32,000 nucleotides of DNA, from contig NZ_LT671858.1 in NCBI RefSeq assembly GCF_900083515.1, forward strand, positions 1,530,001 to 1,562,000, read 5' to 3'. Below, piece after piece: positions 1,919 through 27,072 of this stretch. The stretch comes from Cuniculiplasma divulgatum. GTDB taxonomy: Archaea; Thermoplasmatota; Thermoplasmata; Thermoplasmatales; Thermoplasmataceae. A program made the translations under genes and the position numbers. How positions within the stretch are numbered: position 1 is the stretch's first letter; the number at the start of each line of letters is the position of its first letter. The notes under the pieces were generated by a model. It saw nothing but the letters and a program-made list of their open reading frames with translations. It was not told the DNA's origin and did not search any database.

Positions 1919-2329
1919 ATGATCTCTGATATAAACATTCTTACCTCAGGTTCTAAGGTTTCTATAATAGAAATGCTGAGAACACCAAAAACTCCTGATG
2001 ATATTGCAGGAATACTGAATATAACAAGACAGGGAGTTGACAAGCAGTTGAAGGAACTGATGAGATATGGAATTGTCGATAGAAAGTGGTTCATTGGATA
2101 CAGCAGACCAAAAATAGAATATTTTCTAACGGAACTTGGTTCTGAATTCTATTCCAGCCTCAGAGAGATTGAAAAAAAGTTTAAGGAGTCTGGAAAAGCC
2201 ATGCTGAATGAAAAGCTGAAAAATCTTGATATTGATCTCATGGATGGGAAATTGTCTGTGGAGAAATACACAGAGGAGAAGATGATCCTGGAAGATTCCA
2301 TGGAATGGTTTTTTAGCACCGAGGAATGA
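1919..2329 (+). CDS. ArsR/TrmB-type winged-helix transcriptional regulator with a coiled C-terminal extension
   Basis: HTH signature IIEMLRTPKTPDDIAGILNITRQGVDKQLKELMRYGIVDRK. It is divergent from the beta-helix repeat gene. Confidence 0.6.
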   Translation: MISDINILTSGSKVSIIEMLRTPKTPDDIAGILNITRQGVDKQLKELMRYGIVDRKWFIGYSRPKIEYFLTELGSEFYSSLREIEKKFKESGKAMLNEKLKNLDIDLMDGKLSVEKYTEEKMILEDSMEWFFSTEE

Positions 2330-2373
2330 ATCTGTTTATTAGATCAAACTTTATGAGTAAATTAGAACATATT

Positions 2374-2943
2374 TCACAACTGATCGTACCTGAAACAATC
2401 AATCAGGTGATCATTGATCATACCAGTTCCCTGCATAAAAGCGTAACATATTGTTGATCCAACAAACCTAAAGCCCCTCTTTTTTAAATCCCTGCTCATA
2501 CTGTCTGATTCGGTGCTTGTTGCAGGTATCTCCTTATCTTTTTTCCATCCATTTTTTATGGTCTTTCCATCCACAAATGACCAGATATAATGATCAAATG
2601 ACCCATATTCCTCAACCACTTTCAGAAAAGAAGAGGCATTGGTAATGGCAGAATTTATTTTAAGCCGGTTTCTGATAATACCACTGTTATTCATAAGTTC
2701 ATCAATTTTTTCCTGATCGTATGTGGCAATCTTTTCCGCAGAAAAATTATCAAATGCCTTCCTGTAGTTTTCCCTCTTCTTCAGGACAGTGATCCAGCTG
2801 AGGCCTGCCTGAAATCCATCAAGGGTCAGTGCCTCAAAAAGTGTCCTATCATCGTGCACTGGGACACCCCACTCCCTATCATGATACTGCTGATATACCG
2901 GATCCTCAATGCCCTTCCAGTGGCATCTTTTTAATTCGTCCAT
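2374..2943 (-). CDS. tag: DNA-3-methyladenine glycosylase I
   Basis: RCHW...YHDREWGVPVHDDRTLFEALTLDGFQAGLSWITVLKKRENYRKAF is the Tag family signature. The 189-aa length is typical. Confidence 0.9.
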   Translation of the reverse strand: MDELKRCHWKGIEDPVYQQYHDREWGVPVHDDRTLFEALTLDGFQAGLSWITVLKKRENYRKAFDNFSAEKIATYDQEKIDELMNNSGIIRNRLKINSAITNASSFLKVVEEYGSFDHYIWSFVDGKTIKNGWKKDKEIPATSTESDSMSRDLKKRGFRFVGSTICYAFMQGTGMINDHLIDCFRYDQL

Positions 2944-2997
2944 TTAGAAAAGATCGTAATACGGTTATTTATTCTATCCATTCATGTGCTGTGAATG

Positions 2998-3402
2998 TTA
3001 AAGACTAGTTGTTTTACTGAGATCATCAATAATCTTCTGAATCTTTGAGTCAAAGGATTTTCCATTTTCTGATAACTCCTCCATGTTATGCGTTTTCAGT
3101 ATTGATTCAAGTCTTCTGTAAAGAACATGAGTACCGTCTTTCTCATAAACAAGTATTCTAGCAGGTAAATCAATGGCAAGCTCTGGGTTTGACATTATCA
3201 TACCGGTTCCACCCTTTGGATTTCCAAAGATGATTACCCTTGCTGGAAAAAGTTCAAGATCGACTTCCTTTGCAGCAATGCTGTGATCAATTTCACTGAA
3301 TATTTTAAAACCAGAATTTTCCAGTCCATTCTTCAGTACCTTAACGGATTCGTTGAAGTTCAATTTTAAAATTTTCCTTATAAAAGATTCTTCGCTTAAC
3401 AT
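2998..3402 (-). CDS. DUF302 domain protein
   Basis: 134 aa, with a FGNPKGGTGMIMSNPELAIDLPARILVYE pattern typical of DUF302. Confidence 0.65.
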   Translation of the reverse strand: MLSEESFIRKILKLNFNESVKVLKNGLENSGFKIFSEIDHSIAAKEVDLELFPARVIIFGNPKGGTGMIMSNPELAIDLPARILVYEKDGTHVLYRRLESILKTHNMEELSENGKSFDSKIQKIIDDLSKTTSL

Positions 3403-3482
3403 ATTTTATAATTCCTTCATGGTATATATATGTGATCTCATTGGAATGATAATTTATTTACACAATCACCCTATTTGTGTGT

Positions 3483-5864
3483 ATGAGAATAGAGCATTAT
3501 GATATTGATCTGGACTATGATGAGAAAACGAAGGAATATACAGGCAAGGAAAGGATTATGCTCAGTGGAAATGAGAAAGATTTTGTTATAAATACGCTGA
3601 ATCATGAAATAAAGGAGATAAAGCTGAACGGTGTTAATGTTGAACTGGAAAATGGAAAAAAGGATGAGGAAAAGATCATAAAGGGAGAATTGAGGAATAA
3701 CAGTGAACTGTTCATTGAATTTAAAGCAAAGGTGCCCGAGGCACTAACTGGTCTTTACCTTGCAAAAACACCCGATGGCTCTGAAATGGTATCAACCCAG
3801 TTTGAGGCTATTGGTGCACGAAGAGCATTTCCCTGCTTTGATGAGCCACTGCTGAAGGCAACCTTTTCAATAAAACTTACCATTGCCAGTCATCTTGACG
3901 CAATTAGCAATATGCCAGTTGCTTCAACTACGGAAAAGAATGGAAGAAAAACGGTAGAATTCCAAAGGACGCCAAGAATGCCAACCTATCTTCTCTATCT
4001 AGGCATAGGGGAATTCAAAACCATGCACAGGAAGCATGGAAATGTTGATCTTTACCTTACGGGATTGAAAGGGCACATGGAAACAACAAAATATCCACTT
4101 GATGTTGCAGAACACTGTATAGATTTTTTCAATGAGTACACAGGTATCCCATACATGCTTCCAAAAATGCACCTCATATCTGTACCAGAATTTGCAGCGG
4201 GAGCAATGGAAAACTGGGGTGCAATCACATTCAGAGAATCAGCCTTACTGCATAATGAAAGCTCTGGAAATGCTTCGAAAAAGAGGATTGCATCTGTCAT
4301 TGCCCATGAGATCGCACACCAGTGGTTCGGTGATCTTGTGACCATGAAATACTGGAACGATCTATGGCTTAATGAGAGCTTTGCAACATTTATGGCAAAT
4401 AAGGCCATAGATGCCATATATCCTGAATGGAACATAACAGGTGATATGCTTGTTTCAGACGGGAGGGGAGCATTCCTTGTAGATTCACTGGAAAGCAGCA
4501 ATCCTGTTTCACCTAAGGAAAGGGATATGGACAAAATGGGTGAAAGATCAACGGAAATAACCTATGGAAAGGGTGGAATGATCCTGAGGATGATTGAAAG
4601 CTATGTGGGTGAGGATGCATTTAAAAATGGCCTTCATAACTATCTTGTAAAATATTCATATTCCAACGCTGAGGCTGCAGATCTATGGAAGAGCATATCT
4701 GAGAATTCCGAAAAGGATGTTAGTGGAATAATGGATGCCTGGATCACAAGAGATGGCTATCCACTTATAACCGTAAATAATGGAAATAAAGTGGAGATAA
4801 CGCAGGAAAGATTCCTTCTCAACGGTAAAACAGACGATAGAATATGGCCTGTCCCTCTGACTGTGAAGAGAAAGGATGGGATTGAAAGCATGCTCTTCGG
4901 CAGCAAGGAAAAGGAGATCAGTGTTGGTCAGTTCCTGAAGCTGAACGCAGATGAAACGGGCTTTTACAGGGTAAAATATTCAGATGATTTCTACAGCAAA
5001 TTTGATCCGGCATCAGATGATTTTACTGAATTTGACCTGATCGGCATTATAAGTGATCTTTATGCACTTGTAATATCCGGAAGGATGGATCTGAAAAGAT
5101 ATACTGATATTATAGGAAAATTCAAACAGAATGGCAAATACAACCTTTACATCCAGATATCCAATGAACTTGCAGAACTTTATCACATTTTGTACAGGAA
5201 TGAAGATGTTAAGAAAACATTCATGGATTTTCATGAGAAACAGAAAAAATTGCTTGAGAAGGACAGAAATGATGATATAAACAGGTCAATTTTACATGGT
5301 CTTGTTTTGAGAAGACTGGCAGAGGTTGATGAGGATGTATGTGGTGAACTTGCGGCAAAGTACAATCATATGGAAAAGGAAGATCCGGACATGAGAAGTG
5401 CAATTGCATATGCGTTTGTTAAGAAGCATGATGATCCTGAAGCTACCATTAAAAAATACGAATCGCTAAAAAATGACAATGATCGTGTTGCGGTGCTCGT
5501 TTCCATGGGAAATTTGAAAGGAAAAGAAGCAATGGAAATGATCTTCAATCTTGCAAAGGATGGCAGGATAAAAAAACAGGATGAATCAAGGTATTACACA
5601 TCCTTTGGACTTTCCATTGACAATAAGGATCTGGCATTTGAAAACATTGAGAGAATTGTTGCAAGGCTCAATGAAATATCCTCAGGCGGGAGAAATGTTT
5701 CAAATCTTATGTCTTCTGTACTCCCGTTCCTGGGAGAAGGAAGGACTGATGAAACAAAGAAACTCATGGATAAAATCAGAAACGACAAGAACAAACTTGG
5801 AATTGCAAAGGGACTGGAGAAACTTGAAATTTTTGAGAAACTGAGAGAGAAGTATAATAATTAA
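3483..5864 (+). CDS. M1-family zinc aminopeptidase (tricorn protease-interacting factor F2/F3-like)
   Basis: GAMENWG exopeptidase motif and HEIAHQWFGDLVT(x18)WLNESFA zinc site. About 790 aa. The ATG at 3483 is preferred over the GTG at 3477. Confidence 0.9.
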   Translation: MRIEHYDIDLDYDEKTKEYTGKERIMLSGNEKDFVINTLNHEIKEIKLNGVNVELENGKKDEEKIIKGELRNNSELFIEFKAKVPEALTGLYLAKTPDGSEMVSTQFEAIGARRAFPCFDEPLLKATFSIKLTIASHLDAISNMPVASTTEKNGRKTVEFQRTPRMPTYLLYLGIGEFKTMHRKHGNVDLYLTGLKGHMETTKYPLDVAEHCIDFFNEYTGIPYMLPKMHLISVPEFAAGAMENWGAITFRESALLHNESSGNASKKRIASVIAHEIAHQWFGDLVTMKYWNDLWLNESFATFMANKAIDAIYPEWNITGDMLVSDGRGAFLVDSLESSNPVSPKERDMDKMGERSTEITYGKGGMILRMIESYVGEDAFKNGLHNYLVKYSYSNAEAADLWKSISENSEKDVSGIMDAWITRDGYPLITVNNGNKVEITQERFLLNGKTDDRIWPVPLTVKRKDGIESMLFGSKEKEISVGQFLKLNADETGFYRVKYSDDFYSKFDPASDDFTEFDLIGIISDLYALVISGRMDLKRYTDIIGKFKQNGKYNLYIQISNELAELYHILYRNEDVKKTFMDFHEKQKKLLEKDRNDDINRSILHGLVLRRLAEVDEDVCGELAAKYNHMEKEDPDMRSAIAYAFVKKHDDPEATIKKYESLKNDNDRVAVLVSMGNLKGKEAMEMIFNLAKDGRIKKQDESRYYTSFGLSIDNKDLAFENIERIVARLNEISSGGRNVSNLMSSVLPFLGEGRTDETKKLMDKIRNDKNKLGIAKGLEKLEIFEKLREKYNN

Positions 5865-11946: not shown

Positions 11947-12159
11947 GTAGAATAATTTTGTTGATCAAAATATACCTTTTTTACCATGAAATTTTCATCA
12001 CCTAATTTATATTGTCTGCAGAACAACTTGGTATTAACTGTATTGAATATCCTTTAGGATAGTTTAAATCTACACCTAAAATTTATTCAAGCAGATCACC
12101 TCAAAGTAAACTTTTGTTTACTTACGTACTTAAATATTTTTTTTATTTTTACTACAGCT

Positions 12160-12723
12160 ATGGAGATAACTGGAAATAGGATTAACCTTCCCCTATCAAT
12201 GAAGGCAATCCATGAAACAATGCAAATAAAAAAGTACCTGATTCTATTTATTACAATAGCAGCACTTCTTACTGCCCTATATTTTATTTTGCTCCCAATG
12301 CTACCCTTTGGAGCATTTTTTCTGCCAGCAGTAAGATTCATAACTCCTATTCAGATCTTTTTCGCATTTGCGATGGGTATTCTCTTTTCGCTTCTAATCG
12401 TAACCGCTCTTCGTTCACATTCATACGGTCTAAAAATTAATAAGGGAATGGGTGCAACATCAATACTTACCAGCATTGTTAACGTATTCTGTTGTACACC
12501 AATTATTCCAACACTTATTGGAATTCTTGGTGCCTCTTCACCTTTTGTTTTCCAGTATTCTCCACCAATTCAGCATTTCTTTGCCGTGGATTACCCAATA
12601 TTCTACATAATTTCCATCCTGATGTTAACATATTCCATATTGAAAACAGCTTCGAGCCTGGGATGCTGTAATTTGGATGTTGTAAGGAGAGAAAACGTGA
12701 TATCACGAAAACAGGAGGCCTGA
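12160..12723 (+). CDS. polytopic membrane protein with an intramembrane CCxP motif and a C-terminal CC pair
   Basis: 187 aa, 4-5 hydrophobic helices. NVFCCTPIIPTLIGILG lies within a helix and SSLGCCNLD lies in the hydrophilic tail. A 6-nt gap separates it from the next gene. Confidence 0.6.
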   Translation: MEITGNRINLPLSMKAIHETMQIKKYLILFITIAALLTALYFILLPMLPFGAFFLPAVRFITPIQIFFAFAMGILFSLLIVTALRSHSYGLKINKGMGATSILTSIVNVFCCTPIIPTLIGILGASSPFVFQYSPPIQHFFAVDYPIFYIISILMLTYSILKTASSLGCCNLDVVRRENVISRKQEA

Positions 12724-12729
12724 TGTCTA

Positions 12730-13329
12730 ATGTCCAATTTAAAGAAGAAAAAAATGGAACAGTTAAGGAAAAAGAAGCTGGAAATGAGAAAGAGGATTGA
12801 GAAAGTTGCATTCTTATCAATAACGGTTGCCATTCTGGTTGTGGTGGGTATACACTATTCTGGTTCATTATCTGGAGGAAATCATAATGTAACGAAACCA
12901 AAACAGTCACTTACTGATTTTAATGTTTATTTGATAACAGATACTACCATATCAACAAAGTCTTTGGAAGGAAGTCCGTTGGTCGTGTGGTTCATGACAA
13001 CATGGTGTTCTTCATGTGCTGAGGGAAGTGAACTTCTTGCCTCACAGTATTACAACACATTCAGAACAGATGGCATACACCTGTTGCAGATCGAAAATTA
13101 CAATGACCTAAATGAGCAGGGAATGAGCCTACAGCAGTTTGTAACGCAATATGGAGGTGCGAACGAACCCGGTTGGTACATAGGAACATCTACTCTGTCA
13201 GTAACTCAGCAATATAACCCAACCAGTGCTCTTGATGTGTATTATTTGGTGAATTCACAGGGATACATTGTTGGCAGTGGACAGGGGCTTGGTGCTAACC
13301 TAAACAGCGTAATAGAGACGTTGGGGTGA
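12730..13329 (+). CDS. membrane-anchored thioredoxin-fold (TlpA/ResA-like) thiol-disulfide oxidoreductase
   Basis: Lys-rich N-terminus followed by one TM helix. PLVVWFMTTWCSSCAEG is a thioredoxin-like WCxxC active site. Confidence 0.7.
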   Translation: MSNLKKKKMEQLRKKKLEMRKRIEKVAFLSITVAILVVVGIHYSGSLSGGNHNVTKPKQSLTDFNVYLITDTTISTKSLEGSPLVVWFMTTWCSSCAEGSELLASQYYNTFRTDGIHLLQIENYNDLNEQGMSLQQFVTQYGGANEPGWYIGTSTLSVTQQYNPTSALDVYYLVNSQGYIVGSGQGLGANLNSVIETLG

Positions 13330-13674: not shown

Positions 13675-14268
13675 TCATAGGCTTTGAGAAGAAAGGTTAT
13701 TTCTGACTGACATGTTTCTGAAATGTAACCATATTAGAATTGCACCATTAATCACGTCTATAAGGTATGAAACTTCCTCAAGATATATATCGAAAGCGAG
13801 GGATGCTGATGCTGACACAAATATTGCAATTGCAAAGTATATAATGGGAAAGGTGCAACATGCCCCCGTTGTTATTGTTGAGGCAAAAACTGAGAATGAT
13901 AGTTTCATCACATGCTTCCTTTTACTGCTCAGTGCCAACTGTTTAAACACATCCATTAGGGTAAGAAAAATGGCATAGCTCAAAAAAATTGTAAGTATTA
14001 CCGGAAATATAGGAAGCGAAATTTCGAAATGATATGTTGGGTACCAGTAAAATCCGCTGAACCCTAATAACATATGGATGTTATTGGACCAAACCAAAAA
14101 CATGATTCTATGGTTAATTCCATTGCTGATTGCCCCATACAAACTGCCCCTGTAATAGTCAAAAAAACCAGCTGAAAAGGCATCCATAACCCAGAGGCCT
14201 ATTGATATCAGCAGTGCCAGAAGCGATGGTATCCGGAAAGATTTAGTTGAATGGTTGCTGGAATGCAT
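13675..14268 (-). CDS. polytopic membrane protein with an intramembrane vicinal Cys pair, last gene of the merA operon
   Basis: 197 aa, 5-6 hydrophobic helices, TTGACCTFPIIYFAIAIF. It starts 26 nt after the merA stop on the same strand. Confidence 0.6.
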   Translation of the reverse strand: MHSSNHSTKSFRIPSLLALLISIGLWVMDAFSAGFFDYYRGSLYGAISNGINHRIMFLVWSNNIHMLLGFSGFYWYPTYHFEISLPIFPVILTIFLSYAIFLTLMDVFKQLALSSKRKHVMKLSFSVFASTITTGACCTFPIIYFAIAIFVSASASLAFDIYLEEVSYLIDVINGAILIWLHFRNMSVRNNLSSQSL

Positions 14269-14294: not shown

Positions 14295-15740
14295 CTATTC
14301 AACACAGCACGCCATCTTTGAAAGATCCCTTATGAAGGATTGGGCAGCAAGTTTTATTCCCTCTGAAAATGAAGGGAATATATGGCTCGTTGCAATTATA
14401 TCATCGATGGTATAACCGTTCCTGACAGCGTAAGCACCCTCGGTTATGATATCTGTTGCGTTTGGGGCCATTATGTGCATACCTACAATTCTGTTGTCAT
14501 TTGGATCCACTGTAATCTTTATGACACCTTCAGTTTCGCCCATTATGCTTGCCTTCGTCAGGTTTTCAAGTGAAAATACCCTGCATGAACATGATCCGTT
14601 CTTCTTTGAGAACTCGTTTTCTGTCATTCCAACCCCTGCAATCTGCGGGCTTGTAAATACTGCCCATGTGGAGGAGTCATAATCAATCGTAAGATCTTCA
14701 CCAAACATGTTGTTCACTGCTATAACGCCCTCCCTTGCTGCCAGAGTTTCAAGAAACATCTTTTTGGAAACGCAGTCCCCTGCCGCATATATACCAGGCG
14801 TGGATGTCTTCATTTTTTCAGAAGTCACTATTTGCCCCCTTGAATCGACCTCAACGCCCGCGGACTTGAGATTCAGATATTGTGTGTTTGCATGCCTTCC
14901 AGTTGCAACTATGATCTCCTGGACTTCTATTTTTTCCTTTCCATTATGCGTTATAATATCAATTGATTTTCCATTCCCGGATCTGTTCACTGAACCGATT
15001 CTTGCCCCCAGGTGGAACTTCATTCCTTCCTTTTCCAGGAACCTCTTCATTGCCGAACTTATCTCTGGTTCTGTTTGTGGTAGAAGTGAATCCATTGCCT
15101 CAATCACTGTTATCTTTGAGCCGAAATGCATGAGAGCCTGACCTATTTCCAGTCCTATGGCTCCTCCGCCTATGATGGCAACTGACTCAGGCATTTCATT
15201 GAGTTCCCATATGGTGTCGCTGGTTAAGAATCCTGTTTCCTTCAATCCTTCAATATTCGGTACACTAGGGGATGAACCTGTTGCAATGAGAATGTTAGAT
15301 CCTGTGACCATAGAAATTTCATTCCCGTCAGAATCCGATACCAAGATGGTCTTCCTGTCGACGAATCTCCCAAGACCGTTGAAAAGTTTTACATTGCTGT
15401 AGTTTTCAATCACCTGAGCATATTTTGTGTCTCTTGCATGTGTAACGTATGATCTCAGGCCTTCCATCACCTCTGAGAAGTTATGTTTCACCTGAGTGGG
15501 GTATATGCCGGACATTCTGGGATGATTAGGTCTGAAAACTGAATGGGATGCCTCAAGCAGATATTTTGATGGGACACATCCCACGTTGACGCATGTACCT
15601 CCCAATGATCCCGTGCCTATCATGGCAATTGTCATCTCGCCATTGCTAAGTTCCGAGGCTTTGATTGCAGCTGAAAAAGAAGCTGCACCCCTTCCAAGTA
15701 TTACAAGATCAAATTTCTGTATCTCGCTCTTCAAGTTCAT
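14295..15740 (-). CDS. merA: mercuric reductase (core MerA without a fused NmerA domain)
   Basis: Redox-active GGTCVNVGCVPSK. FAD and NAD(P) GxGxxG motifs. C-terminal FSEGIKLAAQSFIRDLSKMACCVE carries the MerA-specific vicinal Cys pair. Confidence 0.9.
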   Translation of the reverse strand: MNLKSEIQKFDLVILGRGAASFSAAIKASELSNGEMTIAMIGTGSLGGTCVNVGCVPSKYLLEASHSVFRPNHPRMSGIYPTQVKHNFSEVMEGLRSYVTHARDTKYAQVIENYSNVKLFNGLGRFVDRKTILVSDSDGNEISMVTGSNILIATGSSPSVPNIEGLKETGFLTSDTIWELNEMPESVAIIGGGAIGLEIGQALMHFGSKITVIEAMDSLLPQTEPEISSAMKRFLEKEGMKFHLGARIGSVNRSGNGKSIDIITHNGKEKIEVQEIIVATGRHANTQYLNLKSAGVEVDSRGQIVTSEKMKTSTPGIYAAGDCVSKKMFLETLAAREGVIAVNNMFGEDLTIDYDSSTWAVFTSPQIAGVGMTENEFSKKNGSCSCRVFSLENLTKASIMGETEGVIKITVDPNDNRIVGMHIMAPNATDIITEGAYAVRNGYTIDDIIATSHIFPSFSEGIKLAAQSFIRDLSKMACCVE

Positions 15741-15747
15741 TCGCCTT

Positions 15748-15996
15748 TTACTGTTCCATGAGCGTTGCCTTGTAGTGTGATGGCTTTTCGAATACCTTGT
15801 TTTTAAGAAGTCCTTCTGGGCTTACCTTTGTGGGATCGAACTCAACCTCTCCAATGCCATCTTTCAGGGATACCTTCACATCTCTGACGCCTTCCTGATT
15901 CTTTAGGCCACGGCTAACTGTTCTTACGCAGTCATCACAGGTCATTCCATATATCCTCAGTTTTACTTTTCTTTCTTCCATAATTATACATAACAT
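15748..15996 (-). CDS. heavy-metal-associated (HMA) domain metallochaperone (MerP/CopZ-like)
   Basis: GMTCDDC metal-binding loop. About 75-82 aa, and the true start is possibly MEERK at 15981. A 7-nt gap separates it from merA. Confidence 0.85.
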   Translation of the reverse strand: MLCIIMEERKVKLRIYGMTCDDCVRTVSRGLKNQEGVRDVKVSLKDGIGEVEFDPTKVSPEGLLKNKVFEKPSHYKATLMEQ

Positions 15997-16214
15997 TCGT
16001 GTATTAAAGTTGGAAAGTAAATTATTGTTTACCTATCGAAATGAAGATGACTCACTATGCGAAATAATTTTTATACTGAATATGATTCTTCTCCATAATA
16101 TTGAAATATTTCAATCCTTGTTGATTCTACAAGAATTGAAAGCCATAATTCCTTATTTTTCATACATATTAACATGTAAATTTCAGAAGCATTTATGATC
16201 AGTTATGTGAAAAA

Positions 16215-16446: not shown

Positions 16447-17322
16447 TCAATTCTCATCTAGTGTCACCTCAACTTCTTTCTTTTCGAATCTGTTCCTGAA
16501 TGAAGGATCATTCAGGAACTTCCTCCTGAACTCCCTTGGGGGAAGATAATCGATGGATGAATGCAGGCCGCATTCATTGTAATCTGTGAATGCCTTTTCT
16601 ATCTTTATGGAAGCTTTATGAAAGTCTCTCAATTCATTAGGCCAGATATAGTCAGTCTTGATTGAGTTATGGAATGATTCAATATCTCCATTATCTTCCG
16701 GAGTGTGTTTCTGTATATACTCAAGATTGATCCCAAGTAGTTTCATGGCACTCCTGAACTCCCTGGATATATACTGGGGGCCATTGTCTGTTCTCAGTAC
16801 CAGGCCTTCTGATACTGATCCATTGAATGCCAGTAGAACAGCATTCTCCACAGAACGTATGGCATCCCTTGCCATACATGACCTGGAATAATGATATCCC
16901 TGCCATTCCTTGGTGAAAGTGTCCTTGATGCACATCAGATAGGTCATTCCCGATTCGGTGGGAATGTAAGTGATGTCAGTTTCCCAGAGCTGATCCGGAC
17001 CATGGGGATGGAAGAGATTCCTTTTCTTCGTTTTCACTCTGTGTTTCGATGCAGGAAGGTTCAGGTTGTTATCCTTAAGAATCTTCCTGACTGTCTTCTG
17101 GTTCACTTCTGTACCAGAATTACGAAGAACTGCCCACACTCTCCTGTATCCGTATGTTGTCCTCTCTGATGCAATGTCCTTGATCCTTTCCTTGATTGAT
17201 GGATCAAGCCTCTGAATATTCCTCTCTGTAGATTTATAATAATATCCGGATAGTGATATTCCGGATGTCCTTGAGATATTCCTCAAGGACATCTCCTGTT
17301 TTAGATCTTCCACAACCATCAT
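16447..17322 (-). CDS. IS3-family transposase OrfB (rve integrase core, DDE)
   Basis: WETDITYIPT (D), LRTDNGPQYIS (D) and PEDNGDIESFHNSIK (E), followed by a C-terminal LPPREF motif. Confidence 0.85.
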   Translation of the reverse strand: MMVVEDLKQEMSLRNISRTSGISLSGYYYKSTERNIQRLDPSIKERIKDIASERTTYGYRRVWAVLRNSGTEVNQKTVRKILKDNNLNLPASKHRVKTKKRNLFHPHGPDQLWETDITYIPTESGMTYLMCIKDTFTKEWQGYHYSRSCMARDAIRSVENAVLLAFNGSVSEGLVLRTDNGPQYISREFRSAMKLLGINLEYIQKHTPEDNGDIESFHNSIKTDYIWPNELRDFHKASIKIEKAFTDYNECGLHSSIDYLPPREFRRKFLNDPSFRNRFEKKEVEVTLDEN

Positions 17323-17945: not shown

Positions 17946-18329
17946 GTGGAAATGAAAGAAGCTCACGCGGCTGATGAGAGAGGGTATGTCATAATGCCTG
18001 AAAACCAGAGCATTAACGTAGAAAGATCTGAAGATATTCTGAATTTACTCGGCAAGAAATATTCACTGCTCATTATTGGTATTTTGGGAATTGATACTAC
18101 GATGAAATTTAATGATATAAAAAAAATCCTTGGATGCCCATCGTCGAATATTCTGACAGCACGACTTAGGGAGATGAATAGTGCAGAAATTATTGATAGA
18201 AATGTTGTACAATCCTCCCCGATTTCAGTTATGTACTCGCTAACTAAGAAAGGTATAGAACTGAGAAAGAATCTAATTCCACTTTTCAGCTGGATTGAAT
18301 ATAATTGCCCTAGAACGAAGTTAAAATAA
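17946..18329 (+). CDS. HxlR-family winged-helix transcriptional regulator
   Basis: LLGKKYSLLIIGIL...MKFNDIKKILGCPSSNILTARLREMNSAEIIDRN...VMYSLTKKGIELRKNLIPLFSW matches the HxlR (DUF24) pattern. The start is GTG 17946 or ATG 17952. Confidence 0.7.
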   Translation: MEMKEAHAADERGYVIMPENQSINVERSEDILNLLGKKYSLLIIGILGIDTTMKFNDIKKILGCPSSNILTARLREMNSAEIIDRNVVQSSPISVMYSLTKKGIELRKNLIPLFSWIEYNCPRTKLK

Positions 18330-18331
18330 AT

Positions 18332-18367
18332 AAACTAGGTATACTTTATAAACTAGGTATACTTTAC
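18332..18367 (+). promoter_or_regulatory. tandem 18-bp direct repeat (candidate operator) upstream of a TATA-like box for the second mer operon
   Basis: AAACTAGGTATACTTTAT followed by AAACTAGGTATACTTTAC, each with a GTATAC palindrome core. The CTATATATTA box at 18377-18386 lies ~25-30 nt before the ATG at 18409, which suggests a leaderless or short-leader mRNA. Confidence 0.5.
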
Positions 18368-18408: not shown

Positions 18409-18642
18409 ATGACACAAAAAAAGGTTGAGCTAAAGATATTCGGAATGACGAGCAACGAATGTGAAGGGCTTGTCTCTAAGGGACTCAAAACGAGAGATGG
18501 TGTAAAAGATGCGGTTATCGATTTTAAGCTTGGACTTGGCACGGTGGAGATAGATGACACAAAAGTTTCTCCAGAAGACTTGATTCGGCTTCCGGTGTTC
18601 ACCCAGTCGCATTACCGGGCACAGATAAGGAAGGTGGAGTGA
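18409..18642 (+). CDS. HMA-fold protein with a degenerate metal-binding loop (GMTSNEC)
   Basis: It is alignable along its whole length to the 15748-15996 product, but the first Cys of CxxC is Ser (AGC). Confidence 0.8.
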   Translation: MTQKKVELKIFGMTSNECEGLVSKGLKTRDGVKDAVIDFKLGLGTVEIDDTKVSPEDLIRLPVFTQSHYRAQIRKVE

Positions 18643-18648
18643 TTTTAA

Positions 18649-20082
18649 ATGTCTAAAGAATTTGATTTAATTATATTCGGTAACGGAGTCGCTGCATTCT
18701 CTGCGGCAGTAAAGGCTTCTGAGGTAACTTCCCAAGGGGCCAGCATTGCGATGATAGGCACAGGGCCACTTGGAGGAACTTGCATGAATGTGGGATGTGC
18801 CCCCTCAAAATACCTTCTGGAAGCCTCTCACCAGATATACCTTCCCGGGCATCCAAAGATGAGAGGACTTCCGTCTACAAAGATTGAACACGATTTCTCT
18901 TCTATCATGGAAGGTCTTAGATCATACGTGGACCATACACGTAAGACAAAATTTGTCGACATGTTGCAGAATTACCCAAATGTAACTGTGTACGATGGAC
19001 TGGCCAGGTTCGTGGATAGTAGAACTGTTCAGATAACAGATCAGGACGGAAAAGTTAAAGATGAGATCACCGCGCCGAATGTACTGATTGCAACAGGCTC
19101 ACACCCAACCGTTCCGAATATTGAGGGTCTCATGGAAACTGGTTTCCTTACAAGTGACAGTATCTGGAACATTGGCAGCTTGCCGGAAAGCATAGCGATA
19201 ATAGGTGGGGGGGCTATAGGACTTGAGATTGGACAGGCTTTGTTGCACTTTGGTTCCAAGGTAACCATAATAGAGGCTTTGGATATAATTCTTCCACAGA
19301 GTGAACCTGAGATAGGTCAGGCGCTTATGCTCAGACTTCAGCAGGAAGGTATGAATTTCTATCTCGGAGCCAGAGTCAGTTCTGTGGGGAAAGAGTCAAA
19401 CGGACATAAATATATTGAGTTCATAACACACAAGGGAAATGAGAAAATAGAAGTCTCTGAGATAATAGTAGCCACCGGCCGTCAACCAAACACTTCAAAC
19501 CTGAATCTGGAAGCCGCAGGGGTAAAAACTGATGGTAGAGGTCTCATTGTAACCGATGCGAGGATGAAGACAACATCGAGTGGAATTTATGCCGCTGGAG
19601 ATTGTGTTTCAAAGACGATGTTCCTGGAGACCCTTGCAGTAAGGGAAAGCATCGTTGCAGTAGGCAACATGTTCGGCGAGAGTGCTGAGATCAATTACAT
19701 GTTCGCGGCATGGGCCGTATTCACGTACCCACAGGTAGCAGGTGTCGGGATGACCGAGAAGGAATTCTCCAAACTAAAAGGATCATGCTCGTGCAGGACA
19801 TCTTCATTGGCGAACACAATCTATGCCAGCATAACTGGAGAAACCGATGGAATCATAAAAATCACAATAGATCCGGAAACAAATAAGATTGTTGGAATGC
19901 ACATTTTTGCACCCAATGCAACAGATCTCATAATTGAGGGTGCATACTCCGTGAGGTTGGGACTCACATATGATGATATAGTTGCATCAGGACGTATATT
20001 TCCGTCATATTCTGAAGGAGTAAAGCTAGGGGCTCAATTGTTCATCAGGGATGTTTCTAAAGCTTCGTGCTATGTTGAATAA
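18649..20082 (+). CDS. MerA-like pyridine nucleotide-disulfide oxidoreductase paralog lacking one C-terminal cysteine
   Basis: GGTCMNVGCAPSK is intact and identity to the merA product is roughly two-thirds by eye. The C-terminus is SKASCYVE instead of SKMACCVE (TAT vs TGT). Confidence 0.85.
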   Translation: MSKEFDLIIFGNGVAAFSAAVKASEVTSQGASIAMIGTGPLGGTCMNVGCAPSKYLLEASHQIYLPGHPKMRGLPSTKIEHDFSSIMEGLRSYVDHTRKTKFVDMLQNYPNVTVYDGLARFVDSRTVQITDQDGKVKDEITAPNVLIATGSHPTVPNIEGLMETGFLTSDSIWNIGSLPESIAIIGGGAIGLEIGQALLHFGSKVTIIEALDIILPQSEPEIGQALMLRLQQEGMNFYLGARVSSVGKESNGHKYIEFITHKGNEKIEVSEIIVATGRQPNTSNLNLEAAGVKTDGRGLIVTDARMKTTSSGIYAAGDCVSKTMFLETLAVRESIVAVGNMFGESAEINYMFAAWAVFTYPQVAGVGMTEKEFSKLKGSCSCRTSSLANTIYASITGETDGIIKITIDPETNKIVGMHIFAPNATDLIIEGAYSVRLGLTYDDIVASGRIFPSYSEGVKLGAQLFIRDVSKASCYVE

Positions 20083-21064: not shown

Positions 21065-21711
21065 ATGAAACACGCATGTTACTGTATGGGTGATTTACTT
21101 GATCATGCAATAAAAGAAAAATACAATTCAATGAAGATAAATGATCCATTAATATTCGTAAAGAATGCCATAGACTGGGATGCATTCACACTGATATGCT
21201 CTCTCTATCATTTGGACACTTATAAGAGTGATGATATACTGTTAATGGTATATAAGGATGGCAGATCGGTTCATTCACAAAAAAGAACAGTAAAACGTCT
21301 TTTGGATACAAGGGTCATACAATAGTTGATAATAATATTCCTGTTCCAGTAATAAGATCCTATGCTGTGTCAACAGCAAAGGATCATGACACAACCATTG
21401 ATCTTTCCAAAAGAGGAATCATCGTGTACAGAGACAGAGGATACTTCGGACATGATCCAAGGGGAATAGATGGAACAATGGATCGATCTGTGAGAAATCA
21501 TAAACTGTCCATTGAATCCATAAGAAGAAATTTAAGGATCTCAAGAAAGAGATCACTTGTTGAATATCCATATTCTGTCATTAAAAGGGTATTTCATTTT
21601 GCACATGTAATGATAACAACTGTGAAAAGAGTGAGAGTGAAATTCATGTTTGCATGTTTTGCATACAATGTACAAGCATTGAAGATCATAAATGGATGGC
21701 GTGAGCTATGA
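21065..21711 (+). pseudogene. decayed IS5-family (DDE_Tnp_1) transposase gene
   Basis: The C-terminal part (GYKGHTIVD...STAKDHD...YRDRGY...ISRKRSLVEYPYSVIKRVF...FACFAYN) is IS5-like. A frameshift lies near 21295, and the N-terminal part is far too short, which implies an internal deletion. Confidence 0.65.
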
Positions 21712-21852: not shown

Positions 21853-21906
21853 TAAGTAAATTTTTCTTTACTTATATGTATTAATTGTGGGTTGCAATTG
21901 TATATT

Positions 21907-22302
21907 ATGGCAGACGAAAAATTTATGAGGACTATGGTAAAGACAATGGCTACTATGCCAGATGAACAAAGAAGAACGATGCTGAATGACAGACTCAGAA
22001 GCTTCATCGAACTATCGGACCAGGAAAGGGAAAACGCAATGAAGTCAATGCTAGTCGCGGCCCTTTCCCTGAACGAAGATGAATATCTCAAAATAGCGGA
22101 AACTAGAACTCACGTGGTAATGTCCCTGGAACAGAGTGACAGGATGAAGCTCATGAAAACACAACTGGTCGTCGTATCATCTCTTGAACCCTCACTGAAG
22201 CAGAAGGAGATGGAAACTATGAGGAAAGTCCTTCAAAGGCTTCCTGAGCAGCAGTCTCAGATGATGAGGAAGATGCTCGCGGAGAATGGGCTGGAACTAT
22301 AG
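21907..22302 (+). CDS. Met-rich helical-repeat protein of unknown function
   Basis: About six tandem ~19-aa units of the form L-[PSNE]-[DE]-[EQ]-x-R-x-x-M-x-x-M/L. The ATG at 21907 is preferred over TTG 21892, with a TATA-like TTATATGTATTAA ~25 nt upstream. Confidence 0.65.
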   Translation: MADEKFMRTMVKTMATMPDEQRRTMLNDRLRSFIELSDQERENAMKSMLVAALSLNEDEYLKIAETRTHVVMSLEQSDRMKLMKTQLVVVSSLEPSLKQKEMETMRKVLQRLPEQQSQMMRKMLAENGLEL

Positions 22303-22308
22303 CGATAG

Positions 22309-23601
22309 GTGTTTATATTGACTGCAAGTGGATTTTTCGGTCCTTTTTCCCCTGGGACCGGAATAGGTTTTTACATTTTACCCCCTGTTCTGATTCTTCT
22401 TGCCATAACTCTTTCCATGACCCTTCCCATAACAAAAAGGGTGAAGTGGTCAACTTACAGAAGACCATTATATGTTACTGCAGTCCTGTTTGAGAATTGG
22501 ATCAGTGTTGTAGGATTAGTACTAATTCTTGTAGCACCGCCTGGAGTAGGGACCGAATCTAAGGCAATTTATTTTCTACTTACTATAATTATTTTCTGGG
22601 CTGCAACAATAGTACTGGCAAGCAAAAGGATACAGAGCAGGTTCATACCCGAGATGGGTCTTTTCAGGCCGGATCTGTTATATCCAACCGGTGCTAACCT
22701 GGCAAGGGGTGAAATATTCGCCGGACTTGGCCTTAAACTCATGCTTACCATCACCCCGGTTTCAATACATAACTTTGCATGGCTCCCCGTATGGAACTGG
22801 TGGGGTCTTTTATGGGCAGAACTATCCATGGTATTTTTGGTAGCTGTACGGGGCATGACAAAGTTGAAAGTAGTACTGATGGGGCGTATGATAAAACAGA
22901 AAATGCTTGGTTGGAGAGGAACCCTGCTCGAAGAAGGTTTCCTTTATCTTGGATTTACGGGACTTTCGTACGGTTTTCTAAATGTTTTCATGGGTTATAT
23001 CCCTTTTACAGTAGTCTATCCTAGATTTTGGCCCGGAGCACTGATTATGGTTATCGCGGCAATAATACTTATTCCGGTAAGGGGTTACCTGAAGCATAAG
23101 GTTGACAGGATAACCATGTCCTACAGGCGCACACTTGGGCTAATGGCCTTGCTATACCTTGGTGTAATGGTTCTCATGTACGGAATGATTGTAATGCTCA
23201 TGGGAAGATTCCTGGTAGTTACAACAACTCTGGGACTTGTTCTGGGGCTATTTTTACAGATACTTGGTATTAGTGTAATAGTATTTGGCAGGGCAAGATC
23301 GATAATGAATGACAGGAAAGGTATGCTGCCTCAGATGCTCTGGGTTTTATCCCATGCAGATGAACAGGACAGACAGAGAGTCATGAAAACGAGATTGGAA
23401 ATCTTTGCATCAATGAATGAAAAGGAGAGGTATGTAAACATGAAGAATATGTATGATGCCCTTATGCAGCTACCAGATGAAAATCAGTCCAAAATGCTTG
23501 GAACACAGATGATGGCACTTTCTTATCTAGAATCAGAAAAAAGGGGCAGGTGCATGCGAACAATGGATAGAATAACTTCAATGGGGGTGTCACAAGAATG
23601 A
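22309..23601 (+). CDS. polytopic membrane protein with a C-terminal cytoplasmic domain of the same Met-rich repeats
   Basis: 430 aa with ~9-10 hydrophobic helices. The last ~90 aa (ADEQDRQRVMKTRL..MNEKERYVNMKNM..LPDENQSKMLGTQMM..LESEKRGRCMRTM) repeat the motif of the upstream gene. The GTG start lies 6 nt after the previous stop. Confidence 0.65.
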   Translation: MFILTASGFFGPFSPGTGIGFYILPPVLILLAITLSMTLPITKRVKWSTYRRPLYVTAVLFENWISVVGLVLILVAPPGVGTESKAIYFLLTIIIFWAATIVLASKRIQSRFIPEMGLFRPDLLYPTGANLARGEIFAGLGLKLMLTITPVSIHNFAWLPVWNWWGLLWAELSMVFLVAVRGMTKLKVVLMGRMIKQKMLGWRGTLLEEGFLYLGFTGLSYGFLNVFMGYIPFTVVYPRFWPGALIMVIAAIILIPVRGYLKHKVDRITMSYRRTLGLMALLYLGVMVLMYGMIVMLMGRFLVVTTTLGLVLGLFLQILGISVIVFGRARSIMNDRKGMLPQMLWVLSHADEQDRQRVMKTRLEIFASMNEKERYVNMKNMYDALMQLPDENQSKMLGTQMMALSYLESEKRGRCMRTMDRITSMGVSQE

Positions 23602-23783
23602 GTGATGTGTTTGACAGGTTGCCTAAGGCCCCAAAGCTGCTATCAAGAATGGCTTGGTTGGAATATTCTACAGTAATTGCTGTTATTGTTTACTCACTAA
23701 TTATTTTCAACGAAGCTATTCTCGCTATAGGGTTAGTAGGGATATTAATCGTCTATTCCCTTCAGAGACTTGGCGCCGCCTGA
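23598..23783 (+). CDS. small membrane protein (61 aa)
   Basis: The ATGA overlap with the preceding gene implies translational coupling. Two hydrophobic segments. Confidence 0.45.
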   Translation: MSDVFDRLPKAPKLLSRMAWLEYSTVIAVIVYSLIIFNEAILAIGLVGILIVYSLQRLGAA

Positions 23784-24048
23784 AGAAATTAATATCTAAG
23801 TGTCTCTTCAACTCTTTGAGGGTAAGTTATAAACTCATATTCATTTAAATTTTTTTGAAATCTGAAGAACTTTTTAAGATTGTCGATATATTAGATTTAG
23901 AAAGTGATTATAGACCATGTTAAAAGATCTAACACTCATAATGATGACATGAGGAAGCATTTCTGACCCATAAAATACGAATTGGCTCTAATTTCTATGA
24001 TAGATGAATAGCAGGAAAAAATTAATATGCTATTAGGAATCTTCAATT

Positions 24049-25096: not shown

Positions 25097-26338
25097 CTAA
25101 TCCTTTCTCATAAGAATGATGTATTCCTTAGTCATAGTATCATCAAGTTTTCCCACCTTGTTAGAAGGGCTGTTCTTTGAGGGCATTCTCTTATTTGGTA
25201 TGCCTCTTGTAAAAGTCTCAATATTTTTAAACCCATTCTTTTCAAAAAAGCATACGATGGATTTGTCAGTTGGAAGCAACACACCTGCAACCTTCCTGTT
25301 GGCTACAACATAACATGCATATCCACCACTCTTTATGGTCTTTGACACATTATTGATTGAACTCCTAAGATCTGAATAAAAGGAATACACTTCCAAAGAT
25401 CTAACATGGTTTATTCCTTCTACTTCCCTAAGACTTCTATCCAGATCCTCACATCCAAAACTAACGGGCTTTGATTTCTTTCCGCCCATTGATGCTGTAT
25501 CAACGTTACTCTTCAGGATCCCAAGCCATTCTGAAGAGAGTTTTGAATATTGACCATAGGCAACAGTGGTATGCGAATCTCCATAGGGCGGTGAAGTGAT
25601 TACGATATCTATTGAATTTTCCCTTATTTTGCTCTTTGGGATTTGATTTACAGTATTGGCAAGATATATCTTTGAGATAGGCTGATAATTGAGTTCAGCC
25701 ATCTTCCTGTGGAATGATTCATATCCTTTGAAATTCCTGACTAATTTTTCCTTCATGATGGCAAACGGATCTGGATTATAGTCTTTCAGCTTCTCTTTGT
25801 TATATCTATATAGCTTGAATTCACCTTTCCTGGTATTGGAGCTTTCCCTTATGGCCTCACTGGCAGTTGCTTCAAAGAATTTCCTGATCCTTTTGTCCTT
25901 GATCCTGCTGATATATCTTAATATCAGGCCTATGCCCTTTACTGCATTGGGCTTAAACCAGAATTCAAGGTTTTCTTTATCTATAATCTTTGGCGTTCCC
26001 TTTGGAAACATTGTAAATTCAACAAAACGGTCTATTTCGTTGCTTAAATCAATGGGTTCCATATGATATTCTGTCTTTGCCTCTGATATTAGTTTAGCAA
26101 GCGGGTTAATGTCGGTTCCAATTACGTTTAATCCTGCCAATAATCCTTCTACCAAGGAGCTGCCAGAACCACAGTAAGGATCAAATAATAAATTCCTCTC
26201 TTTCTCTTCCAGCATTCTTATTATGTTTCTTGGAATTTGTGGGATCATCCTTGCTGGGTAATCGTGGTATATATGGGTGTATTCCCTAGTATTCTCATTA
26301 AGAAATGTCCAGTCCCTTTCCTTGATCTCTTCTATCAT
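25097..26338 (-). CDS. DNA methyltransferase (N4-cytosine/N6-adenine class, SPPY motif)
   Basis: Motif I is FDPYCGSGSSLVEG near the N-terminus. Motif IV, IVITSPPYGD, lies ~180 aa later. It overlaps the upstream endonuclease gene by 4 nt. Confidence 0.85.
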   Translation of the reverse strand: MIEEIKERDWTFLNENTREYTHIYHDYPARMIPQIPRNIIRMLEEKERNLLFDPYCGSGSSLVEGLLAGLNVIGTDINPLAKLISEAKTEYHMEPIDLSNEIDRFVEFTMFPKGTPKIIDKENLEFWFKPNAVKGIGLILRYISRIKDKRIRKFFEATASEAIRESSNTRKGEFKLYRYNKEKLKDYNPDPFAIMKEKLVRNFKGYESFHRKMAELNYQPISKIYLANTVNQIPKSKIRENSIDIVITSPPYGDSHTTVAYGQYSKLSSEWLGILKSNVDTASMGGKKSKPVSFGCEDLDRSLREVEGINHVRSLEVYSFYSDLRSSINNVSKTIKSGGYACYVVANRKVAGVLLPTDKSIVCFFEKNGFKNIETFTRGIPNKRMPSKNSPSNKVGKLDDTMTKEYIILMRKD

Positions 26339-27072
26339 AGCTTCCCCATTTTTGGTATTATCCTATCTCTATATGCAAAGCAGTCTTGAATGTTTCCCTC
26401 AAGCACTCTAAATGCTGTGCCATGATCATGAGGTTTTCCTTCATTTTTGCTTCCCTTTGGGTAGATTCCAAGCCTTAGCTCAACCTTTACAATGCCATTG
26501 CTGATAAGGGTTATAAATCTTTCAAATGAAAAGCCCATCAAAACCCATGCCTCATTGTAGTTGAATTCCTCATTCATCTTACTTCCCCTTTTATCAGCCT
26601 TCACAAGCAAAACTCTATACATTTTTAATTCAAAGGATTTCTTAAGTGTTTCATAATCCCATCCGCCATAGATCTTTCCATGAATATTCACAATGTCAAT
26701 TCTGTCAGGAGTAACAGCAAGCTTTAATGAAGGAATGCCTTTGATCTCAGTTGTTCTATTTCCATAAAGATCCACATGGAGATTCTTCTTTGTCGGATCA
26801 TTAACACTCTGGTAGCCGTAATCATCCAGCAGATTTTTTATGGACTCGCCAGGTTTAGGGCTCTTTGTAAAGAGGGTTATCATTGATGATGAATCTTTCC
26901 GTATGGATTTTAATTCCACCTTCTCTCCATTTGGCCCTGGAAAGTTGTTTTCTTGTATTCCCAATAGATCTTCAAGTGTTTTGCCTATGCCAGTATCATG
27001 GGTTCGATTTGAATGGATCCATTGGTTGCTGATTTCATTTAGTCGATCAACCAATTCGTTAAAGCCTTTCAT
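26335..27072 (-). CDS. type II restriction endonuclease, MvaI/BcnI family
   Basis: 245 aa. TGIGKTLEDLLG, ELKSIRK..SSMITLFTKSP and KPHDHGTAFRV match remembered conserved blocks of MvaI and BcnI (~240 aa enzymes). Confidence 0.7.
   Translation of the reverse strand: MKGFNELVDRLNEISNQWIHSNRTHDTGIGKTLEDLLGIQENNFPGPNGEKVELKSIRKDSSSMITLFTKSPKPGESIKNLLDDYGYQSVNDPTKKNLHVDLYGNRTTEIKGIPSLKLAVTPDRIDIVNIHGKIYGGWDYETLKKSFELKMYRVLLVKADKRGSKMNEEFNYNEAWVLMGFSFERFITLISNGIVKVELRLGIYPKGSKNEGKPHDHGTAFRVLEGNIQDCFAYRDRIIPKMGKL

Follow-up and report, generated by a model that had tools for sequence, protein, structure and literature searches.

We analysed a stretch of 32,000 nucleotides from the archaeon Cuniculiplasma divulgatum (contig NZ_LT671858.1, positions 1,530,001 to 1,562,000), hereafter referred to as the window, in which three consecutive genes, g1, g2 and g3, lie beside a mercury-resistance (mer) island. 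The three genes are encoded on the forward strand and form one operon (Table 1), which consists of a soluble methionine-rich repeat protein (g1), a membrane protein whose C-terminal tail is homologous to it (g2), and a small membrane peptide (g3). None of them reaches the threshold of a curated family in Pfam or NCBIfam, and neither these proteins nor the putative operator in front of them were described in the literature that we searched. Because this control site is shared with the neighbouring mercury-resistance genes, and because the operon is adjacent to merA in many unrelated microbes, g1-g2-g3 probably serves the handling of mercury or soft metals as a component that has not been described before.

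Table 1. Features of the window, numbered from its first letter, and (last four rows) of related loci in their own numbering
Feature	Position	Strand	Basis
Third palindrome copy, 38 nt upstream of gene 12160 (Cys-Cys membrane protein/AhpC-like pair)	12105..12122	.	
Membrane protein with Cys-Cys motif	12160-12723	+	sequence
AhpC/TSA-like protein	12730-13329	+	domain scan
Membrane protein with Cys-Cys motif, after MerA	13675-14268	-	sequence
Genuine MerA, C-terminus ...MACCVE	14295-15740	-	TIGR02053, 526 bits vs cut-off 454
HMA protein, GMTCDDC	15748-15996	-	Pfam, sequence
Second palindrome copy, 20 nt upstream of the HMA/MerA/Cys-Cys membrane protein operon	16016..16033	.	
HxlR-family regulator, candidate binder of the palindrome	17946..18329	+	Pfam HxlR, E 5e-17
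IS5 transposase fragment between mer genes and g1	21367..21711	+	Pfam/NCBIfam
Palindrome AGTAAATTTTTCTTTACT, putative operator, 35 nt upstream of the g1 ATG	21855..21872	.	motif search
g1, Met-rich alpha-solenoid, predicted cytoplasmic, 131 aa, six 19-aa units, divergent DUF3106-like	21907..22302	+	sequence, profiles, AlphaFold2
g2 membrane domain (residues 1-328), nine transmembrane helices (TM), N-out, TM5-6/TM7-8 duplicated	22309..23292	+	AlphaFold2, positive-inside rule, hhalign
g2 tail (residues 329-430), predicted cytoplasmic, four 19-aa units	23293..23601	+	BLASTP, profile, AlphaFold2
g3, 61-aa peptide with two TM, ATGA-coupled to g2, C-terminus ...LGAA	23598..23783	+	sequence, orthologues
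T7 run, candidate archaeal terminator, 67 nt after the g3 stop	23850..23856	+	sequence, inference
Second-class g1-domain membrane protein, same locus as g2, L005	8152-9261	-	
Second-class g1-domain membrane protein, same locus as g2, L011	5975-7156		
Second-class g1-domain membrane protein, same locus as g2, L014	10559-11815		
Second-class g1-domain membrane protein, same locus as g2, L020	11174-12244		

The reading frame of g1 is open from a TTG at 21892, and its ATG at 21907 is the start in all orthologues. The protein contains no cysteine and 16 methionines (12.2%, compared to a mean of 2.96% in ten other long open reading frames of the window), and eight pairs of these methionines stand at i+3 or i+4, against 3.6 +/- 1.7 in shuffled sequences (P=0.013). 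Its units, each exactly 19 aa long, begin at residues 17, 36, 55, 74, 93, and 112. Profile-profile comparisons align them in register (E 4.6e-9 for units 1 and 3, and 3.3e-9 for units 3 and 4), and two-unit blocks of 38 aa align over their full length (E 7.5e-7). The AlphaFold2 model consists of seven helices, each about 16 residues long, with turns of 2-3 residues between them, and has a predicted local distance difference test score (pLDDT) of 92.5 and a predicted template modelling score (pTM) of 0.84; according to this model, the fold is an alpha-solenoid. The N-terminus displays no hydrophobic signal-type stretch. A Foldseek search of the PDB with the model retrieved generic solenoids alone (designed solenoids, armadillo, and VHS-type repeats, best E 0.35), and a profile search of PDB sequences yielded nothing below E 0.06.

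The tail of g2, in which 14 of the 102 residues are methionines, is homologous to units 0-4 of g1 (BLASTP E 3e-9), and a profile of 35 g1-type proteins matches g2 residues 340-421 (E 4e-15). Its four helices are modelled at residues 352-367, 371-386, 390-405, and 409-425 with pLDDT of 85-92. Among 47 full-length g2 homologues, on which all column statistics of this family are based, the conserved residues of the tail are M343, R355, M381, R412, M416, and M419. The operon therefore encodes a soluble protein homologous to the cytosolic domain of the adjacent membrane protein. This pairing is kept elsewhere: a protein with a g1-type domain is present in every g2 locus larger than a gene fragment and is soluble in all of them except L005 (loci are designated by L and proteins by P throughout). 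Archaeal loci display the gene order g1-g2-g3, and bacterial loci either g2-g1 or g1-g3'-g2.

The reading frame of g2 starts at 22309 or 22318 and ends at 23601 on the forward strand, and it comprises 430 aa when counted from the GTG at 22309. The true start is probably the TTG at 22318 (427 aa), since this codon lies 6 nt after a GGTG at 22308-22311, and since the homologues and one database entry of 427 aa begin there. The AlphaFold2 model (pLDDT 75, pTM 0.77) displays nine TM, followed by the tail helices. In a set of 18 homologues, lysines and arginines number 3.9-5.3 in the odd loops and 0-0.8 in the even loops; judged by the positive-inside rule, this asymmetry indicates that the N-terminus is outside and that the tail is cytoplasmic. 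A hairpin of two TM has been duplicated in tandem (TM5-6 versus TM7-8, hhalign 97.6%, E 2.7e-12) over 22780-23230, corresponding to residues about 158-306. Both hairpins display the pattern W-x-G...R-G-x-x-K...Y-G-x5-M-G, of which the Y-G-x5-M-G end lies at the outer face, and no relatedness was found between these hairpins and either TM1-4 or g3. Other conserved positions among the homologues include M37 (100%), the F-R-P-D of a cytoplasmic loop (98-100%), the P-x-W-x-W-W of an outer loop, cytoplasmic Arg/Lys residues, and two methionines at the outer end of a helix, M228 in TM6 and M298 in TM8. The membrane domain has no Pfam relative and no match among PDB sequences, and Foldseek gave a best E of 0.36 with a TM-score below 0.3.

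The start codon of g3 overlaps the stop codon of g2 in an ATGA (23598-23601), and its product displays two hydrophobic helices. Orthologues of g3 occur in seven further distinct loci. In addition, g3 aligns to the C-terminal extension of two natural g2-g3 fusions (P0015 and P0016), down to the terminal G-A-A, and the N-in topology of g3 in these fusions agrees with a cytoplasmic g2 tail. The original prediction for this locus, made from the sequence alone, had described most of this arrangement, namely an operon of three genes at 21892-23783, a first protein of about 131 aa with six Met-rich units of about 19 aa, about 16 methionines and at least seven M-x(2-3)-M pairs, four copies of the unit in the tail of the second protein, a coupled membrane peptide of 61 aa, and no recognised family for any of the three. 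These points all hold, as does the proposal that g1 is a soluble paralogue of the membrane protein's tail. The count of about ten TM in g2 had to be lowered to nine, and the label "transporter-like" has no basis beyond the presence of TM, given the lack of Pfam, PDB sequence and Foldseek matches.

Evidence tying the operon to mercury came from its upstream region. A comparison of the sequences upstream of g1 in six Thermoplasmata loci revealed a palindrome, AGTAAA-N6-TTTACT. Allowing at most one mismatch, it occurs three times in the 32 kb of the window, versus 0.11 expected, and three occurrences were reached in 0 of 100 dinucleotide shuffles. The copy upstream of g1 abuts a TATA-like TTATAT (21872-21877). 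The other two copies precede the operon of HMA, MerA and a Cys-Cys membrane protein, and the pair of a Cys-Cys membrane protein with an AhpC-like protein, suggesting that both belong to the same regulon as g1-g3. A regulatory site common with merA, which is a feature of mer accessory genes, is therefore found at the g1-g3 operon.

The palindrome also occurs upstream of g1 in five related loci (twice in L015, twice in L006, and in L007, L016, and L010). In these relatives, it is further found in front of an HMA gene (L015), of an operon of zf_CopZ-HMA and a Cys-Cys membrane protein (L016), and of a radical SAM gene (L010). The divergently transcribed g1 and HMA-merA of L007 are separated by 88 bp, which contain one palindrome. 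The HxlR-family regulator of the window is a candidate for binding this site, and HxlR genes recur beside g1-g3 in L015, L016/L017, L003, and L020. L015 also encodes a MerB-like alkylmercury lyase (91-522, minus strand; Pfam 30.3 bits versus a cut-off of 27), and a near-copy of the palindrome with two mismatches lies upstream of it (696-713).

The neighbourhoods of g2 in other genomes displayed the same association. Counts of loci are those returned by our scans, in which many contigs are short, and MerA was called by its C-terminal Cys pair or an N-terminal HMA (NmerA) domain. Of the 19 distinct loci, 10 encode MerA at a distance of at most 10 kb from g2 (the window, L015, L007, L012/L023, L003, L005, L020, L014, L019, and L027). 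These span 26-92% identity in g2, come from Thermoplasmata, 'Thaumarchaeota', Bipolaricaulia, and other bacteria, and display varied gene orders. The linkage to merA is thus recurrent across lineages, in at least four phylum-level groups. Examples are L014 from Bipolaricaulia (MerA ... HMA-g2-g1), the bacterial L019 (NmerA-MerA, ArsR, ... g1-65 aa-g2), and L027 (g2, g1, MerA). In L007, L014, and L027, no membrane protein other than g2 was identified next to MerA and, in those loci that have it, HMA. A zf_CopZ gene was found in two further loci, accompanied in L016 by a Cys-Cys membrane protein and in L011 by a weak MerT-like gene. In L011, from a 'Thaumarchaeota' metagenome-assembled genome (MAG), the gene of a g1-type protein of 222 aa immediately precedes that of a membrane protein of 327 aa (both within 2017-3685), which has a sub-cut-off match to MerT (E 5e-4), and an AsnC-type regulator and the zf_CopZ gene are located nearby. 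No P-type (copper) ATPase motif or Cus genes were found near g1-g3 in any fetched locus, and a role in copper export was rejected on the absence of the ATPase motif.

Since the palindrome is common with merA and the MerA/HMA neighbourhood is recurrent, the g1-g3 operon appears to be part of a mercury-centred regulon, and not merely parked there after an insertion sequence (IS) event. The original prediction had placed the operon at the edge of a mercury island, behind IS-derived sequence. Both were found upstream of g1, and the link to mercury turned out to be stronger than adjacency. The regulon predicted by the palindrome would comprise HMA-merA, merB, the Cys-Cys membrane proteins, the AhpC-like gene, and a pair of B12-binding radical SAM genes.

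The radical SAM pair raises another explanation. These proteins, of about 550 aa each, are encoded divergently from g1 in L015 (1663-5025), L006 (411-3851), and L012 (2459-5842), in all three on the minus strand, and in L015 and L006 the region between them and g1 holds two tandem copies of the palindrome. In L002/L012 and L011, g3 is followed by genes for a major facilitator superfamily (MFS) protein and a C39-type peptidase, which are also nearby in L018, and IS elements flank many loci. It could be supposed that g1-g3 serves an unrelated membrane function, such as export or modification of the product of these radical SAM, MFS, and peptidase genes, and was tied to mer by mobile islands. Alternatively, the Met-lined repeats could bind hydrophobic clients, in the manner of the SRP54 M-domain or Get3, whose Met-rich grooves bind hydrophobic helices and provide a precedent. 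We consider either version improbable. Sharing the palindrome with HMA-merA argues for co-regulation beyond co-transfer, and the linkage to MerA persists across phyla and differing gene orders. Neither the bacterial loci nor the window contain the radical SAM, MFS, and C39 genes, and in the window IS5 remnants occupy the place of the radical SAM pair. Finally, Foldseek found no similarity of the g1 model to SRP54 or Get3.

The mer island of the window contains two further membrane proteins of interest. Both display vicinal cysteines within predicted TM (VFCCTPI and GACCTFPI) and neither matches Pfam or NCBIfam. Similar Cys-Cys membrane proteins recur beside MerA in L003, L005, and L009/L016, and the pair formed with the AhpC-like gene is kept beside MerA in L003 and L005. 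On the basis of these sequences, the Cys-Cys membrane proteins are candidate new Hg(II) importers of Thermoplasmata.

The AhpC/Redoxin-type genes, which belong to the same putative regulon in the window and recur in L003, L005, and L019 (L020 has a CMD-family gene instead), suggest a different use of the methionines. Under metal or oxidative stress that depletes thiols, g1 and the g2 tail might act as sacrificial sinks for oxidants or electrophiles, in which Met is converted to Met-sulfoxide, together with the AhpC/TSA-like protein and pyridine-nucleotide disulfide oxidoreductases. The high Met content and the semi-exposed positions predicted for these residues would suit such a buffer. Nevertheless, this explanation seems quite unlikely to us: none of the 29 fetched loci contained an MsrA or MsrB signature motif, which weakens a simple Met-sulfoxide cycle; conservation of Met at specific positions (96% at one column) and of Arg is unexpected for a bulk scavenger; and the nine-TM partner and g3 are left unexplained.

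Homologues provided a view of which residues are maintained. A word-based search with g2 retrieved 18 homologues and an exhaustive profile search retrieved 188 proteins, 32 of them at E<=1e-30. Many short matches of this profile cover the tail part alone and represent g1-type proteins with 9-19% Met. A word-indexed search with the single g1 sequence returned no match, while a search with the g1 family alignment returned 45, all named ones being "hypothetical protein". A tblastn search with a bacterial g1 homologue found no match in 72,556 plasmids, and a scan of metagenomes with the g2 alignment yielded seven loci. Loci with g2 derive from Thermoplasmata, 'Thaumarchaeota' MAGs, an actinomycete, and a Bipolaricaulia MAG; g1-type proteins are also found in Asgard MAGs, and fusions of the g1-type domain with membrane domains of the SPW and DUF6789-like types occur as well.

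The nearest described family is DUF3106 (PF11304), which shares with g1 a helical repeat of about 19 aa, "L-P-E-E-x-R ... hydrophobic". The proteins of the window score below its gathering cut-off of 24.3 bits (15.6 bits for g1, E 0.023, and 13.3 bits for the g2 tail). DUF3106 is matched at E<=0.01 by 21 of 35 members of the g1 family, and the relatives P0084, P0069, P0077, P0074, and P0136 exceed the cut-off with 25-32 bits. Unlike DUF3106, the branch of g1 is Met-rich and lacks a signal peptide. These profile scores suggest that g1 and the g2 tail are a divergent, remote branch of DUF3106 and not formal members. The papers that mention DUF3106 are unrelated to these proteins.

Over 185 g1-type domains, Met is conserved at 96% (M10 of g1), 83% (M48), 77% (M83), 69%, 67%, 62%, and 60% in individual columns. 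MxxM pairs occur at columns 6/9, 44/47, 82/85, and 120/123, a period of 38 aa that would put them on every second helix of the modelled solenoid. Orthologues of g1 contain 9-18% Met, while the fold signature is also displayed by DUF3106-type relatives such as P0136, P0092, and P0103, whose Met content is 1.6-4%. Since these Met-poor relatives retain the repeat, the Met load is not needed for the fold, and methionine appears to have been selected, not merely tolerated, in the g1 family. By a rough ideal-helix (helical wheel) estimate, the conserved methionines are 70-115 degrees off the aliphatic face, so they are predicted to flank the core instead of filling it. Bacterial homologues have added tails rich in Met, Gly, Pro, and His (MPMPAMGG, QHMGHGH) and an M-x-x-H-M motif. 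In many bacterial g1-type proteins, among them P0115, P0126, P0130, P0147, and the protein at 7864-8340 of L014, a Met/Gly/Pro-rich extension leads into a basic stretch and then the W-W-x-F-W motif at the end of the chain; this arrangement is absent in the archaeal proteins and could be a membrane or partner anchor.

Based on these findings, we postulate a thioether-based relay of soft metal at the membrane, for Hg(II) and possibly Cu(I) or Ag(I), and tentatively assign this reading a probability of about 0.4. In this relay, g2 and g3 would form a membrane complex of new fold, with the g2 tail repeating, in four units, the Met-lined alpha-solenoid of which g1 consists. The soluble protein would dock on the tail, or exchange with it, as metallochaperones pair with the domain of a transporter (CopZ/CopA, MerP-MerT-NmerA), and would buffer or relay metal from weak thioether sites to the thiolates of the co-regulated HMA protein and MerA. 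The likeness of this design to the chaperone/transporter-domain pairs of CopZ and CopA is the reason for proposing an exchange of metal over Met-lined surfaces; metal binding, docking, and the direction of transfer are all conjectural in this scheme. It is favoured by a Met load that is not structurally required, by the Met/Gly/Pro/His tails and M-x-x-H-M motifs of the bacterial proteins, by the predicted position of Met beside the core, and by the loci in which g2 is the sole membrane protein identified beside merA. A more specific version, which we find doubtful, is that g2/g3 is a new-fold, Met-only conduit or receptor that would hand soft metal to g1 via the tail, as a Cys-free alternative to MerT/MerP/NmerA supplying MerA in acidophilic archaea and scattered bacteria.

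Several observations weigh against the relay. Both Met-rich domains are predicted to be cytoplasmic, where the known soft-metal sites rely on Cys and where sites made of Met alone would be poor competitors of the cell's thiols. The clustering of MxxM/MxxxM known from Mets-motif proteins is displayed by g1, while Met pairs in the g2 tail are in no excess over composition. Conserved Met columns swap with Leu, Ile, or Val, not with His or Cys, and invariant Arg accompanies the Met stripe. In g2, the homologues have no conserved Cys or His (no column with >=40% Cys) and no conserved acidic or other polar residue in the TM, and no similarity to transporters was found by Pfam, PDB sequences, or Foldseek. 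The two Cys-Cys membrane proteins, judged by their sequences, would be better candidates for Hg(II) import than g2. About half of the g2 loci lack MerA in their flanks, and some of these carry the MFS, C39-type peptidase, and B12-radical SAM genes.

Part of this evidence would fit a docking or signalling module that binds no metal. In such a module, g2/g3 would be a sensor or anchor, and the tail and g1 would be interaction scaffolds that switch or compete for partners, controlling or recruiting parts of the mer or thiol-stress response such as an HxlR or AsnC regulator, HMA, or MerA. The weak structural neighbours of g1 are typical binding scaffolds, and the invariant Arg columns (95%, 91%, 88%, and 87% of the 185 domains) suggest a polar recognition surface. 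The replacement of Met by aliphatic residues and the lack of conserved Cys/His are likewise in agreement with it, regulators often adjoin the genes (HxlR, AsnC, an ECF sigma factor, and ArsR), and the fusions to SPW and DUF6789-like domains resemble the use of a portable cytoplasmic adaptor. On the other hand, this explanation does not account for 9-18% Met when the fold tolerates 2-4%, nor for the Met/Gly/Pro/His tails in bacteria, and no DNA-binding or kinase-type output domain was found in the family members scanned. We regard it as rather unlikely.

The module can be compared with several known metal-handling systems. As in CopZ-CopA, Atx1-Ccc2, and MerP-MerT-NmerA, a soluble protein is homologous to the cytosolic domain of a membrane partner encoded with it in a metal-resistance regulon. 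In contrast to these pairs, g1 is modelled as an all-alpha solenoid, not the ferredoxin-like HMA fold, and has neither a CxxC nor any Cys. Helix-borne MxxM/MxxxM motifs, and in some g1 homologues the M-x-x-H-M and the Met/Gly/His-rich tails, recall the Ctr1 ectodomain, CusF, PcoC/CopC, and SilE/PcoE. However, these known proteins are located outside the cytoplasm, with His or Trp serving as co-ligands, whereas g1 and the g2 tail are predicted to be cytoplasmic and have no conserved His; there is also no sequence or fold similarity between them and the g1 family. Like MerT, MerC, MerF, MerE, and the archaeal MerH, g2 is a membrane protein whose gene adjoins those of HMA/MerA and seems to be under the same control. 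Those importers have 2-4 TM and an essential Cys pair, whereas g2 has nine TM and no conserved Cys, and it did not match MerT or MerC of Pfam at E<=1. As far as sequence comparison can tell, g1-g2-g3 lies outside the HMA, MerT/MerC, and Mets-motif families, of whose defining features it displays the motif count alone.

The original prediction had guessed at a soft-metal system by analogy to Ctr1, CusF, and PcoC. The link to mercury gained support from the palindrome and the MerA neighbourhoods, and the Met positions proved to be conserved in homologues. The analogy itself failed on cellular location and on the lack of a conserved His/Cys co-ligand. Overall, the guess is supported in part.

To our knowledge, the route by which Hg(II) reaches cytoplasmic MerA is not known in archaea and in the many bacteria that lack MerT, MerC, and MerP. 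The g1-g2-g3 module, with its palindrome and co-regulated genes, is a concrete candidate for this missing step. Should it signal or protect instead, it would still be an undescribed and widespread part of mercury islands, and its membrane fold would be one for which no structural relative was found. The module appears to be new as a mer accessory module built from uncharacterised folds. It would also provide the first functional context for a DUF3106-type repeat, and a fold in which Met, not Cys, is the selected residue inside the cytoplasm.

The remaining observations concern the surroundings of the operon. The mer island is split by an IS element with an rve integrase (16447-17322, minus strand) and by IS5 transposase fragments (21065-21711, plus strand), and the closest relatives, L015 and L006, display an intact arrangement without these insertions. 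The HMA/MerA pair nearest to g1 (18409-20082) looks degenerate. Its MerA (18649-20082) scores 469 bits and has lost the C-terminal Cys pair (...SCYVE), and in the HMA protein paired with it the first Cys is missing as well (GMTSNEC versus GMTCxxC). The promoter of this pair (about 18331-18366) contains a tandem direct repeat, TAAACTAGGTATACTTTA x2, and no regulon palindrome. Downstream of the operon is a restriction-modification pair (25097-27072, minus strand) of an MvaI/BcnI-family endonuclease and an N4/N6 DNA methyltransferase, which is not conserved beside g1-g3 in other loci.

Finally, a second class of membrane proteins with a g1-type domain was found in four of the loci that also encode g2 (Table 1). 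These proteins, of about 360-420 aa, consist of an N-terminal region of about 110 aa, one g1-type domain, and C-terminal TM. The representative in L014 adjoins a cupredoxin with a twin-arginine translocation (TAT) signal.

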